A stretch of 2,811 nucleotides of DNA, from positions 1-2,811 of the IMG/VR virus record IMGVR_UViG_2802429235_000006; one strand, given 5' to 3'. A model generated the notes under the pieces. That model saw nothing but the letters and a program-made list of their open reading frames with translations. It had not been told where the DNA came from and ran no database searches. Each line of letters opens with the position of its first letter. Position 1 is the stretch's first letter. This DNA comes from a virus. Its lineage: Duplodnaviria > Heunggongvirae > Uroviricota > Caudoviricetes. Both the position numbers and the translations under genes were made by a program. Below, one piece after another: positions 1 to 2,811 of the stretch.

Positions 1-162
1 GTGATTGATGGACAGGACGGGACACCGTTCATGCTGTCGCAGTCTCCGGTAGGGACACTGGCGGCAGACAAGTTACGCCTGACCGATATCACCAGTAATG
101 CAACGTATCCGGTACTGATTGGCAGCATTATGGTGGAAGTGAATAACCCGTCAGCAGGATAA
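1..162 (+). CDS. 3' end (last 53 codons) of an upstream gene truncated by the window edge; product not identifiable from this fragment
   Basis: Frame +1 is the only + frame open across 1-159 (the other two + frames hit stops within the first 7 nt) and ends at TAA 160-162. The peptide ...VIDGQDGTPFMLSQSPVGTLAADKLRLTDITSNATYPVLIGSIMVEVNNPSAG has ordinary globular composition. No start codon in window. Confidence 0.45.
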   Translation: MIDGQDGTPFMLSQSPVGTLAADKLRLTDITSNATYPVLIGSIMVEVNNPSAG

Positions 163-297
163 AAAAATGCCGCCGGGAAAGGGAAAACAAGGAAACCGGC
201 GGCAGAGGTCGTTATGTCCAAAGCAAAAAATGCAGGACGCTTTTTTAACCAACAGGTATTAACGATGTCAACACCATATCAATAATTGGGAGGGATA

Positions 298-474
298 ATG
301 ATATTTTTACAGCTTATTTTATTGTATTTCTGCACGGTGGTATGTGTCTTATATCTGGTGAGTGGCGGTTATAAAATCATCCGTAACTACATCCGTAAAA
401 AAATTGATGCCATGGCGGCTGAAAAAATCAGCGCCAGTCAGTCAGCTGAGCCAAAAGCTCCCCCCCTCCCGTAA
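298..474 (+). CDS. small (58 aa) single-pass membrane protein, function unknown
   Basis: ATG 298 preceded by GGAGG (289-293, 4-nt spacer); the ORF track's TTG 286 start is less likely. N-terminal hydrophobic helix IFLQLILLYFCTVVCVLYLV followed by a basic/charged tail (KIIRNYIRKKIDAMAAEK...PKAPPLP). Stop TAA 472-474. AT-rich (about 32-42% GC) relative to neighbours. No family recognised. Confidence 0.45.
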   Translation: MIFLQLILLYFCTVVCVLYLVSGGYKIIRNYIRKKIDAMAAEKISASQSAEPKAPPLP

Positions 475-499
475 TCACATCTCACAGCGAGAAAATCCC

Positions 500-805
500 A
501 TGACAGAAATGAAAAAACTTGTCACTGCTGATGCAGTGAAGTCTGCGCTGCGCACTGAAGAAGTACGCGGTACGCTGAAAGCATCTATCCGTAAAACGTT
601 TGAGGCTCAGATTGATGCTGATGTGGAAGCGATTCTGGATGAGCTTATCGGACCTGCTGAGGGGGCATCTGCGCCACAGGCAGGGGATGGTGAGAATACA
701 GCAGACTCTCCGGTGGAAAACAGCAGCGAACAACCTGAGGCACAACCCGGTGCTGGAGAACAACCGGCTGATGTACTGCAGCCTGAACCAGCGACCATGC
801 TGTGA
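500..805 (+). CDS. hypothetical acidic protein (101 aa) with helical N-terminal half and Pro/Glu/Ala/Gln-rich low-complexity C-terminal half
   Basis: Open frame 362-805; I place the start at ATG 500 (MTEMKKLV...) because frame-2 translation upstream of 500 is S/Q/P/R-rich and overlaps the better-looking frame of the 298-474 ORF. Weak SD (GAGAAAA). Stop TGA 803-805. Antisense ORFs 482-817, 607-810 and 645-926 are Arg/Cys-rich and look non-coding. ATG 509 or 407 cannot be excluded. Confidence 0.5.
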   Translation: MTEMKKLVTADAVKSALRTEEVRGTLKASIRKTFEAQIDADVEAILDELIGPAEGASAPQAGDGENTADSPVENSSEQPEAQPGAGEQPADVLQPEPATML

Positions 806-820
806 TACATGACGCACAGG

Positions 821-849
821 CCACCAGCATATCGCGGTGGTCTTTTGTT
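821..849 (+). terminator. candidate intrinsic terminator-like hairpin between the acidic ORF and the holin
   Basis: ccacc(a)gc-atatc-gcggtgg: 7-bp GC-rich stem with a 1-nt bulge (821-840), followed by tcttttgtt (841-849). Lies 16 nt after the stop at 803-805 and about 20 nt before the holin SD. Hand-folded, no free-energy calculation. Confidence 0.3.
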
Positions 850-882
850 ATCGTGCGCTTTCGGTGAACGGGAGGCGGGGAT

Positions 883-1098
883 ATGTACCAGATGGAAAAA
901 ATCACAACAGGAGTGTCATACACCACGTCTGCGGTGGGGACGGGATACTGGTTTCTGCAGTTGCTGGACAGGCTATCCCCGTCTCAGTGGGCGGCGATAG
1001 GTGTGCTGGGGAGTCTGCTGTTTGGTTTGCTGACGTACCTGACGAATCTGTATTTCAAAATTAAAGATGATCGTCGTAAGGCGGCGCGTGGAGAGTAG
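883..1098 (+). CDS. S: class II holin (pinholin), phage-21 S-like, 71 aa
   Basis: GGAGG at 871-875, 7 nt before ATG 883; second in-frame ATG at 892 (M1-Y-Q-M4 dual-start arrangement). Product [71 protein letters not shown]. It has a weakly hydrophobic Gly/Ser/Thr-rich TMD1, a hydrophobic TMD2 and a charged C-terminal tail ([13 protein letters not shown]). This closely resembles my recollection of phage 21 S21. Stop TAG 1096-1098. Confidence 0.9.
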
Positions 1099-1328
1099 GT
1101 GATGAATAAAAAATACTAACTGGTTGTTAAAGGGATACATGATTGCCTGGATAATGGGGGATTTTCAGGTTGTTGCGGGGATTGAAGCACTGGTCAGTGG
1201 TGCAGAAAAGGAAGCATCGCTGATGAAGCCTCTTCTTTGTGATTCTGATAACCACCATTCAGTAAAGTACATTATGGTTTGTGCCTGTCATGGGAACCAA
1301 GGGAAAAAGGGGTACTACAGGTTTCTGG

Positions 1329-1646
1329 CTATCTGAATTTTAATGATAGATTATTGAAAATTCGCTTTTTTTGCAGGCATGCATAATTCTTATCCCATGG
1401 GCAATCAGGGCGACTGAATTCCTCATTAACCCATTTGTTAATATGGTGTTTCAGATGCTGAAGCATTAATGGTGTTAATGTGGTGATAACGATATCCATC
1501 GTTTCTGTTGACAGTTTGCCGTAAGGCTCTGCGAGAATGGCTCTAGTGGTTTCGCTATTATCCGTGATAAGTCTCCGGAGCTCTGACTTAATATTTTCAT
1601 TCATTACCTGCAAAAACTCCCTGCGTAAATTGTCTTTGTTATTCAT
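1329..1646 (-). CDS. hypothetical protein (105 aa), antisense ORF inserted between holin and endolysin; function unknown
   Basis: Only long ORF in the 675-bp S-R gap. ATG at 1646-1644 (minus strand) with GAGA 8 nt upstream; an in-frame TAA lies immediately 5' of the ATG. No TM segment or signal peptide, charged and helical composition. The ORF and its flanks are AT-rich (about 38% GC over 1321-1740 by hand count). A perfect TATAAT hexamer lies on the minus strand at 1696-1701 in the AT-rich leader. Stop TAG (minus) at 1331-1329. Confidence 0.55.
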   Translation of the reverse strand: MNNKDNLRREFLQVMNENIKSELRRLITDNSETTRAILAEPYGKLSTETMDIVITTLTPLMLQHLKHHINKWVNEEFSRPDCPWDKNYACLQKKRIFNNLSLKFR

Positions 1647-1773
1647 TTATAAAATCTCATTTGTTGTTATCTGATGTGTCCCGGTGAGTATATTGATTAT
1701 ATGTGTTGTGAATGTTGGATTACGCACCAGACATACCATGGAATGAGAAACCGATAAATCCTGATAAATATCC

Positions 1774-2307
1774 ATGAGTGCAAAAATCAAATACGGCCTG
1801 TCGGCTGCCGTTCTGGCGATGATTGCCGCAGGGGCTTCTGCGCCTGAAATTCTCGACCAGTTTCTGGATGAAAAGGAAGGCAACCACATAACAGCATACC
1901 GTGATGGTACGGGTATCTGGACCATCTGCCGTGGTGCCACAATGGTGGACGGTAAGCCTGTCGTTCCTGGCATGAAACTGACGAAGACAAAATGCGAGCA
2001 GGTGAACGCCATCGAGCGCAATAAGGCGCTGGCGTGGGTGGAGGAAAATATCCAGGTATCGCTGACTGAGCCGCAGAAAGCAGGTATCGCGTCGTTCTGT
2101 CCGTACAACATTGGCCCAGGTAAGTGTTTCCCGTCGACGTTTTATAAGCGGCTTAATGCCGGTGATCGTAAAGGTGCCTGCGAGGCGATTCGCTGGTGGA
2201 TTAAGGATGGTGGCAAAGACTGCCGTATTCGCTCAAACAACTGCTACGGTCAGGTATCACGGCGTGACCAGGAAAGCATGCTGACGTGCTGGGGGATAGA
2301 TAATTGA
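1774..2307 (+). CDS. R: SAR endolysin: signal-anchor-release lysozyme (T4-lysozyme-like, GH24 muramidase), phage-21 R-like, 177 aa
   Basis: N-terminus [27 protein letters not shown] has K4/K6 followed by a weakly hydrophobic Ala/Gly/Ser-rich stretch, typical of a SAR domain. E35 (1876-1878), D44 (1903-1905) and T50 (1921-1923) have the 9/6 spacing of the T4 lysozyme E11-D20-T26 triad. No Cys within the SAR segment. Stop TGA 2305-2307. No obvious SD before ATG 1774. Confidence 0.92.
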
Positions 2308-2811
2308 TTAAGCTTGTGGCCATTGTATTGCTGTCAATTGGCTCATTTATTGCCGGAAATGTCTGGTGTGAAAGAGAATGGCAAACGAAATGGGCTGAGC
2401 GGGACAGTGAAGAGTCGTCGCAGATTGTTAATACGCAGATTGCTACCAGGAGGATTGAACAGGGGCGTATTGTTGCCCGTGATGAGGCTGTCAAAGATGC
2501 ACAAGAGAAAGCTGTCAAAGCCAATGCTACTGTTGCTGGTTTATCTGCCACTGTTAGTCAGTTGCGGGAAAAAGCAACAAGGCTTACCAGTCAGACTGGA
2601 ATCGGCAGAGCATACCGCAAATATTGCCGCTACCGTCAGAAGCAAAACAATCGAAAGCAACGTCGCAATGCTCGCCGACATGCCCGGAAGCCTTGCAGAA
2701 GAAGCTGGATATTATGCTAAACGAGCTGACGAAAATTACCGCGCTGGATTGACATGTGAACGCATTTATAATTTAGTCAGAGATTCAAATTATCTGACAG
2801 AGACGTACTAA
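2304..2811 (+). pseudogene. Rz: i-spanin (Rz-type) gene, frame-disrupted as written: N-terminal TMD and first helical region in frame 0 (2304 to about 2573), C-terminal periplasmic region in frame 1 (about 2575-2811)
   Basis: TTG 2304 overlaps the R stop (aTTGA), with GGGGGA 7 nt upstream. Frame 0 gives [21 protein letters not shown] (N-terminal TMD with K3) then a charged helical region ...[29 protein letters not shown]. It then becomes a 41-aa Arg/Lys-rich tail ([41 protein letters not shown]) to TAA 2718-2720, typical of out-of-frame translation. Frame 1 from about 2581 gives a well-formed helical tail (...[46 protein letters not shown], stop 2809-2811) resembling Rz C-termini as I recall them (lambda ...RLADTAERDYFTLRERL...). 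Removing one nt near 2569-2573 yields a continuous 168-aa Rz. Confidence 0.65.
2497..2752 (+). pseudogene. Rz1: o-spanin (Rz1-type) outer-membrane lipoprotein gene embedded in Rz, affected by the same frame shift: signal peptide and lipobox in frame 1, predicted mature region in frame 2
   Basis: ATG 2497 with GAGG 9 nt upstream. Frame 1 gives [23 protein letters not shown]: a basic n-region, hydrophobic h-region and lipobox L-V-S-C (Cys codon 2563-2565). As written, frame 1 runs on through the Rz-like helical tail to 2811 (104 aa). Frame 2 after the Cys region reads ...[59 protein letters not shown] to TGA 2750-2752. This is Pro/Ser/Gln-rich like embedded Rz1 mature domains; with one nt removed the product is 84 aa, fully embedded in Rz. 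Confidence 0.5.

Follow-up and report, generated by a model that had tools for sequence, protein, structure and literature searches.

A ydfR-family pseudogene and a conserved opposite-strand gene between the holin and endolysin genes of a prophage relic

Which genes occupy the 675 bp that separate the holin gene S (stop at 1098) from the endolysin gene R (start at 1774) in this fragment of a lambdoid late region, and is any of them under selection? A preliminary description, made from the sequence alone, had correctly noted this separation and had read the interval as a single AT-rich antisense moron with a promoter of its own and a possible influence on the timing of lysis. We analyzed the whole stretch of 2,811 nt, referred to below as the window, and found the following features.

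298-474: DUF1378 gene, within the lambdoid late-region fragment
500-805: DUF826 gene, within the lambdoid late-region fragment
883-1098, plus strand: holin gene S, phage-21-type class II, intact (71 aa; PF04971, E 1.3e-32); left border of the cassette
1099-1773: S-R gap, 675 nt
1105-1156, plus strand: 5' stub of a ydfR-family (DUF1327-type) gene, MNKKY*LVVKGI, with a nonsense codon at position 6
1157-1336, plus strand: remnant of the C-terminal domain of a long-form YdfR-family protein (matches to phrog_26186 and phrog_1085)
1329-1646, minus strand: intact gene for a protein of 105 aa (phrog_1853, E 9.1e-43)
1647-1773, minus strand: AT-rich leader, putative promoter region (GC content 0.346)
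1696-1701, minus strand: TATAAT, a possible -10 box 49 nt before the ATG
1774-2307, plus strand: endolysin gene R, SAR-type, intact (177 aa; PF00959, E 2.1e-24); right border of the cassette
2304-2811, plus strand: Rz-like spanin gene (DUF2514), running to the end of the window and disrupted by a +1 frameshift near 2583-2587

The accessory cassette in the S-R gap is thus composite, consisting of a dead gene on the late strand and an intact gene with its leader on the opposite strand. Of the earlier reading as one antisense moron, the discrete and compositionally distinct accessory block stands, but not the single unit, as the left third of the gap is what remains of a ydfR-family gene of the late strand.

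Composition, genomic context and probable host

The AT-richness described before was borne out by computed values, which set the gap apart in composition. GC content is 0.376 over 1321-1740 and 0.391 over the whole gap, compared with 0.519 in the holin gene and 0.532 in the endolysin gene; by parts, it amounts to 0.43 in the remnant, 0.381 in the minus-strand ORF, and 0.346 in the leader, and GC at third codon positions is 0.43 in the minus-strand ORF versus 0.59-0.63 in the flanks. Low GC content also occurs outside the gap, with 0.35-0.39 at positions 201-450 in the region of the DUF1378 gene.

The window is a 2.8-kb prophage relic that, to judge from the surrounding sequence, probably resides in Escherichia ruysiae. 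The exact 105-aa protein was found in 199 blocks of a contig index, and the whole 2,811-nt window was matched at 98.9-99.9% identity in five of six places among the matches listed. The relic is flanked by a gene for a cytochrome b561-type protein on one side and by lpxR/ompW on the other, with the trp operon about 4 kb past the cytochrome gene, and neither a Q antiterminator gene nor structural genes were called in the flanking 20 kb. Neither alignment nor an exact 43-mer gave a match among the species-representative genomes, and we infer E. ruysiae as the host because proteins at matching loci are named either Escherichia ruysiae or 'MULTISPECIES Escherichia' and the trp operon beside the relic is 94.1% identical to its best E. 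coli match.

The lysis cassette itself is decaying, since Rz is frameshifted: a tblastn search with the Rz-like spanin of phage 2H10 as query split into frame 3 (2310-2582) and frame 1 (2587-2793), and DNA alignment revealed one extra base in the window. A sister strain (L060) carries a deletion of 28 nt in R. With no Q gene called nearby and a broken Rz, the proposed modulation of lysis timing is inoperable in this context, and if the 105-aa gene has any role here, it would be that of a stand-alone chromosomal gene.

A late-strand pseudogene and an intact minus-strand gene

A nonsense codon, a deletion of about 585 nt, a frameshift, and the ratio of nonsynonymous to synonymous change mark the plus strand of 1105-1336 as a pseudogene that derives from a long-form gene of the ydfR family but is not a member of it. 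The window retains the first 17 codons of the gene and part of the long-form C-terminal extension. The stub (ATG AAT AAA AAA TAC TAA CTG GTT GTT AAA GGG ATA) aligns base for base with the beginning of the YdfR-family genes that are intact in Stx2 phage 86 and Stx2_95 (MKKKYELVVKGINNYPDK) and is interrupted by a change from GAA to TAA at codon 6 (1120-1122); in BLASTN, homology of this region to L053 and L054 extends to about 1154. Upstream of the C-domain remnant, about 585 nt are absent from the DNA alignment with relatives, and a 1-nt gap in the same kind of alignment marks a frameshift near 1269. The ORF called in this region (1124/1139-1336, plus strand, 65/70 aa) is accordingly a fragment of the pseudogene. 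In its longer version (1124-1336) it matches phrog_26186 (E 1e-5) and phrog_1085 (E 2.7e-5), the families of the intact late-strand gene, so that homology to the long form is present and the reading frame is destroyed. The remnant C-domain is 54% identical over domain residues 27-63 (tblastn) as against 87-100% among intact copies, and its dN/dS of 0.52-0.58, compared with 0.15-0.32 between intact late-strand copies, indicates relaxed constraint.

Long YdfR-family forms of 185-333 aa are common in E. coli, and many of them are named 'YdfR family protein'. Their N-terminus is variable, being either DUF1327 or a coiled coil, and the late-strand proteins share a C-domain with the conserved motif IGRCMG..QVAAEIE..DNPPFK..YLK. 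AlphaFold2 returned a poor model of the late-strand partner protein (pLDDT 48.6). The ydfR gene (DUF1327) of the K-12 prophage Qin and the genes for 'YdfR family proteins' between S and R of Stx and other lambdoid phages likewise lie on the late strand after a class II holin gene, but the copy in the window is a pseudogene, and the 105-aa ORF lies on the other strand without a DUF1327 match. For YdfR, a recent study (PMC13232886) reported binding to the catalytic half of RNase E and, possibly, to RNA. The comparison with ydfR in the preliminary description applies to the plus strand, where the pseudogene lies, and not to the 105-aa protein, which we rejected as a YdfR homologue because of its opposite strand, its different predicted secondary structure, and the lack of a match to PF07041. 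A conserved plus-strand gene in relatives, which had been named as an argument against an antisense insertion, exists for 1099-1328 but not for 1329-1773; a plus-strand coding reading of 1329-1646 was discarded as well, since this strand offers only ORFs of 32 and 45 aa.

On the minus strand, the previously described ORF of 105 codons was found again at 1329-1646, beginning with ATG. Its length is uninformative, because longer spurious antisense ORFs of 111-154 aa are present inside other genes of the window; it is conservation and dN/dS that make it real. The match to phrog_1853 spans residues 1-103 and profile positions 57-158 of 159, which places the protein in this family. Compared with the E. 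coli copy L001, substitutions at codon positions 1, 2, and 3 number 19, 8, and 32, respectively, and dN/dS lies at 0.15-0.25 in every estimable pair of lineages (0.17 versus L001). By these substitution patterns, the ORF is a real gene under purifying selection, as its earlier reading as a coding gene had presumed.

The family phrog_1853 is small and confined to enterobacterial prophages. The 105-aa family forms six clusters at 90% identity among 5.8 billion proteins and has 21 representatives at 50% identity among 1.84 billion proteins. Among 50,697 phage records, only four, all of them Stx2 phages, carried the minus-strand gene. In chromosomes of E. coli, relatives were detected by blastn in 654 of 5426 complete genomes (c. 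12%), 628 of these 654 at about 72% nucleotide identity and with sampled O157:H7 strains among them; a second allele group comprises 95 genomes. Two relatives, both annotated as hypothetical proteins, belong to phrog_1853 and are likewise encoded on the opposite strand between S and R, namely orf6 of Stx2-converting phage 86 (BAF34038.1, 47% identical) and an O157:H7 protein (WP_000138558.1, c. 67% identical). Phage 86, unlike the window, retains an intact late-strand partner (orf5, 268 aa), and the O157:H7 copy is an orphan by a different deletion from that of the window. The RefSeq start of the O157:H7 copy corresponds to Met15 (90 aa); the conserved N-terminus argues for 104-105 aa, so that the start codon annotated in the record read is probably placed too far downstream.

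The protein has a mass of 12.6 kDa, a pI of 9.3, and a GRAVY of -0.7, and the absence of transmembrane or signal features noted before agrees with a maximum of 0.83 in a 19-residue Kyte-Doolittle window, that is, with no hydrophobic segment. AlphaFold2 modeled five helices (pLDDT 83.5, pTM 0.72), and we predict a soluble, basic, all-helical, cytoplasmic protein. The searches by homology and structure that had been proposed for it yielded no functional match from Pfam, NCBIfam, PADLOC, PDB, or BFVD. A Pfam scan detected no family at E ≤ 0.1, and scans of the protein and four relatives against Pfam, NCBIfam, and PADLOC gave nothing above noise, the best hits in PADLOC-DB 2.0 (PD-Lambda-1 and LmuC; E 0.0085-0.018, about 40 residues, 12-13.5 bits) being noise themselves. 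Foldseek of the model against PDB and BFVD found nothing at E ≤ 0.001, and a profile search of PDB sequences resulted in one meaningless match to a designed protein (E 0.008). A literature search on this gene family and on orf5 and orf6 of phage 86 found nothing. The slot described in the Tai defence paper is a different one, upstream of the packaging genes.

Upstream of the gene, the plus strand of the leader (1647-1773) carries the approach to the endolysin start codon. The leader shows 0-1 substitutions in 127 nt relative to the E. coli prophages L058 and L004 and is the best-conserved part of the cassette. The minus-strand TATAAT at 1696-1701 was confirmed; it is kept in L001 and reads CATAAA in the O157:H7 copy. 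A more distal box is CGTAAT in the window, whereas L001 and O157:H7 have TATAAT there. The independent promoter claimed on its basis was, however, not demonstrated: the hexamer occurs at chance frequency (two in the window versus 1.3 expected, with 78 of 200 shuffles reaching two), no -35 box paired with it scores above 2/6, and neither a sigma-70 consensus scan nor separate scoring revealed a convincing promoter in any lineage. The sequence evidence for a promoter of the minus-strand gene is therefore weak. On the minus strand downstream of 1329, there is no terminator-like site. Folding of the leader RNA of the window gave no stable structure (z = +0.83), and an Rfam scan produced only a sub-threshold fungal snoRNA, a chance hit.

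An exchanged cassette and a separable convergent pair

Alignment of the S-R region across prophages, as had been suggested, located the boundaries of an exchanged block at about 1078 and 1790. Against L058 and L004, mismatches of the window amount to 41-43 of 216 positions in the holin gene (19-20%) and 67-72 of 527 in the endolysin gene (13-14%), but to only 11-12 of 675 in the gap (98.3% identical). The low-divergence block extends from about 1078 to about 1790, with the divergence of the holin gene reaching to about 1077 and that of the endolysin gene resuming at about 1788-1850; the difference in substitutions between the gap (12/675) and the flanking S and R genes (115/743) in these E. 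coli prophages is highly significant (Fisher p 6e-22). Because of this 98% identity amid 13-20% divergence of S and R, we regard the S-R block as a discrete, exchanged cassette. Both prophages share the stop codon, the deletion, and the frameshift of the window, so the orphan configuration must be older than its spread into different S and R backgrounds.

Megablast picked out 24 of 5426 complete E. coli genomes with relatives at about 81% nucleotide identity. In these relatives, the gap holds two annotated, convergent genes: one of 194-222 aa on the late strand, whose start lies 4 nt past the holin stop, and one of 99-106 aa on the minus strand, whose product is 73-77% identical to that of the window ORF. 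The C-domain is directly adjacent and convergent in all 42 of 42 viral-contig loci as well as in L001, L002, and L054, and loci with the minus-strand gene have either a late-strand C-domain or the wreck of a late-strand gene directly downstream, tail to tail. The pair was followed in relatives from 79% down to 25% identity, where either 9-25 nt separate the two genes or their ends share 18-33 nt, next to a holin gene. In the distant relatives L010 (44% identity), L065 and L066 (34%), and L067 (25%), the pair has its place directly upstream of the holin gene instead of downstream, the holins being of PF04971, PF05106 (L065/L066), and PF16080, respectively, and the partners retain the motif IGRCM..LQ.AAEIE...DNPPFK...YLK. 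Among the 50,697 phage records, the C-domain occurs in five, which include the four with the minus-strand gene. From these gene neighborhoods, the linkage of the pair exceeds what sharing of a slot alone would lead one to expect. In all, holin genes of no fewer than three families accompany the pair.

Both genes also occur separately. The late-strand gene is common without its neighbor (as in L053, L062, and L063), and 787 of 5426 E. coli genomes contain DNA of the C-domain. Stx2_95, M1/5, and O157:H7 TX 265-1 show the order S, late-strand gene, a spacer of 36 nt, and R, with no minus-strand gene, and in L010, S and R overlap. Conversely, the minus-strand gene is an orphan in the lineage of the window, because its late-strand partner is dead. 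The O157:H7 locus L061 is an independent orphan, in which ydfR is reduced to a stub of ten codons ('MNKQYELVVK*') and the holin is a truncated ORF of 54 aa adjoining an IS1203 element. Between these two orphan lineages, dN/dS of the minus-strand gene is 0.20, and its retention through two different routes of partner decay argues for a selective value of its own. The minus-strand gene evolves faster than its late-strand neighbor: C-domains from E. coli lineages retain 87-100% identity even where the minus-strand proteins of these lineages share only about 47%, which is unlike tightly co-evolving partners unless alleles have been swapped by recombination.

A moron, as reportedly defined by Juhala and Hendrix, is an additional gene of atypical composition that is equipped with a promoter and a terminator of its own; in phage lambda, lysogens express bor, an opposite-strand gene beside Rz. 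The cassette of the window resembles morons in its low GC content (ORF 0.38 and leader 0.35, versus 0.52-0.53 for S and R), its opposite strand, its place beside lysis genes, its sharp borders, and its absence from syntenic relatives (Stx2_95, M1/5, and TX 265-1). It differs from classic morons in that the gene has no demonstrable promoter or terminator, its product is neither a lipoprotein nor a membrane protein, and by ancestry it belongs to a convergent pair instead of forming a unit by itself. Toxin-antitoxin and immunity pairs with orphan antitoxins likewise consist of two small adjacent genes, one of which is often lost, but the pair described here is convergent instead of co-directional. 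An obligate toxin-antitoxin pair was rejected on account of this orientation, the common occurrence of each gene alone, and the lack of any toxin or antitoxin domain.

Possible roles of the 105-aa protein

As an explanation of the locus as a whole, we favor, with a probability of roughly 55%, a composite cassette derived from an ancient convergent pair, whose minus-strand member was retained as an orphan and would be expressed in the prophage state. The gene would be transcribed from a weak promoter of its own in the AT-rich leader, opposing late transcription. Because such a promoter would oppose the late direction, as in other lambdoid accessory genes on the opposite strand, the protein may be made in the prophage state and silenced once late transcription overruns the gene. 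We guess that it acts by binding and not by catalysis and that it would antagonize the C-domain of late YdfR-family proteins, be it of its own phage or of co-resident or superinfecting lambdoid phages. Though the likeliest mechanism we can offer, this antagonism is a tentative proposal; it would make the gene useful, and thus selected, even after the loss of its partner in cis. The late-strand gene for its part needs no antagonist in cis, since it lacks the minus-strand gene in most E. coli loci read.

About as likely as the proposed antagonism is that the gene is stand-alone prophage cargo directed at the host or a foreign phage, for instance in superinfection exclusion, defence, or host regulation, its adjacency to the ydfR-family gene reflecting a shared permissive slot and common history and no functional link. 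Cargo of this kind fits the hundreds of E. coli genomes in which each gene occurs without the other, the purifying selection on the gene in two lineages from which the partner disappeared by different routes, and the low GC content, opposite orientation, and sharp recombination borders known from classic morons. Conflict genes often evolve fast, and the faster evolution of the minus-strand gene relative to its neighbor would suit one of them. What slot sharing explains poorly is that the convergent pair is kept down to 25-44% identity, across two genomic positions and three holin families; moreover, no PADLOC model matched better than E 0.0085.

A somewhat more doubtful variant of the favored reading takes the convergent pair as a two-component system, in which a late effector acting on lysis, host takeover, or phage competition would be opposed by the 105-aa protein as its prophage-state antagonist. 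The orphans in the E. ruysiae relic and at the O157:H7 locus would then have been retained by domestication, for an anti-phage or anti-effector function.

It is improbable, by comparison, that the ORF is functionless and has stayed intact so far only owing to the youth of the relic, with decay like that of its neighbors still to come. The prophage is indeed decaying, as seen from the ydfR pseudogene, the frameshifted Rz, and the endolysin deletion in L060, and frameshifted variants of the 105-aa family exist in databases (P0004, P0005, P0007, and P0009). However, dN/dS is low over all lineage pairs, and within the exchanged block the 445 nt of ORF and leader accumulated only 4 substitutions, compared with 8 in the 238 nt of the pseudogene part (Fisher p 0.03). 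Cluster sequences include 14 variants of the 65-aa remnant ORF but only six of the longer 105-aa protein, and the ORF is intact in both of the independently degraded cassettes read (the E. ruysiae relic and O157:H7 L061).

Least probable of all is a cis-acting antisense regulator, in which minus-strand transcription, on its way toward S, would pass through the 3' end of the late-strand gene and damp or time the lysis genes by transcriptional interference or RNA pairing, the ORF being incidental: the convergent layout with 3' ends overlapping in several relatives, the lack of a terminator between the two genes, and the strong conservation of the leader would suit it, but the excess of third-position substitutions and dN/dS of about 0.2 point to selection on the protein, the leader RNA has neither a stable fold nor an Rfam match, and, as Rz is broken and no Q gene was called in 20 kb of flanking sequence, nothing is left here to be timed. 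Selection at the codon level and repeated retention of the gene thus make both the antisense-RNA and the dead-ORF reading disfavored.

Altogether, the S-R gap is an ordinary prophage accessory cassette and not a new kind of system. The slot and its ydfR-family gene are known and already annotated, whereas the 105-aa family is annotated as hypothetical only; its gene is an uncharacterised prophage accessory gene beside the lysis cassette and not a known defence protein. The finding is thus mainly a correction of annotation, by which the S-R gap resolves into a ydfR pseudogene and a conserved gene on the opposite strand. It would carry more weight if the gene proves to serve a function by itself, in view of its survival of two decays, the purifying selection, and the deep linkage near holin genes. 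The 105-aa gene is a cheap and well-defined candidate for studies of interference between lambdoid phages, of lysis control, and of the domestication of prophage genes.

Chromosomal setting and margins of the relic

The entire window (1–2811) corresponds to a prophage relic of 2.8 kb, located in the chromosome of an Escherichia other than E. coli. Copies were found at positions 8836–11646 of six chromosomal loci (L055–L060), whose host is named E. ruysiae by the sources, and the trp operon of the relic-bearing chromosome revealed 94.1% identity to that of E. coli. The relic is flanked by a cytochrome b561-type gene on one side and by lpxR/ompW on the other; neither a Q gene nor structural genes were called nearby in 20 kb of flanking sequence. 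Gene remnants and a compositional feature were assigned as follows:

1–162: 3' fragment of an esterase gene (last 53 codons), the intact form of which in relatives encodes a SASA/DUF6645 esterase of 648–649 aa
201–450: second AT-rich stretch (GC 0.35–0.39), spanning an intergenic region and the DUF1378 gene
2304–2811, plus strand: Rz-like (DUF2514) spanin gene with a +1 frameshift near 2583–2587 in comparison with phage 2H10

Of the esterase gene, the E. ruysiae relic keeps just this 3' fragment or, at L055, a piece of 219 aa. Due to the frameshift, the N-terminal (2310–2582) and C-terminal (2587–2793) parts of the Rz-like gene lie in different reading frames, and in strain L060 the endolysin gene additionally revealed a 28-nt deletion. 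Since low GC also occurs at 201–450, it is not peculiar to the gap between the holin and endolysin genes (S–R gap).

The minus-strand gene in other lineages

Upstream of the minus-strand gene of the S–R gap, the leader in several relatives carries an additional element:

3926–3955 in locus L013, and at about 3925–3955 in L041, L054, and L010: GC-rich hairpin followed by a U-run

Its sequence, GCCCGCCAG..CTGGCG-UUUUU, resembles that of an intrinsic terminator, with the same strand orientation as the gene. The hairpin is kept even in L010, whose minus-strand protein is just 44% identical, and is absent from both the window and the related locus L001. It could serve as an insulator or attenuator, or else form a structure when the late strand is read.

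In E. coli O157:H7 TR01 (L061, 2350–3735), an orphan copy of the minus-strand gene adjoins a 10-codon ydfR stub, and the holin ORF, located beside an IS1203 element, is truncated to 54 aa. RefSeq lists the gene product with 90 aa, starting at Met15 (WP_000138558.1). Because the N-terminal 14 residues are conserved, the true product is more likely the 104-aa form.

The late-strand partner and the S–R slot

Alignment A6 (L001 2439–3023 and homologues) revealed that the ydfR-family late-strand partner is modular. DUF1327 or, alternatively, a coiled coil forms its N-terminus, the middle segment varies, and the C-domain (about 85 aa) is highly conserved, its GRCMGYLQ and PFK motifs being invariant. 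AlphaFold2 gave no usable model (pLDDT 48.6). YdfR (DUF1327) has been reported to interact with RNase E through the catalytic half of that enzyme (PMC13232886).

In Escherichia phage PhiR5_1 (L003), the S–R slot harbors a DUF1327-plus-linker gene without the C-domain, together with another ORF:

2349–2609, minus strand: 86-aa ORF (phrog_2572), converging on the DUF1327-plus-linker gene

This ORF differs from the minus-strand protein of the window (22% identity), of which it may at most be a remote homologue. The slot has thus repeatedly been home to convergent gene pairs.
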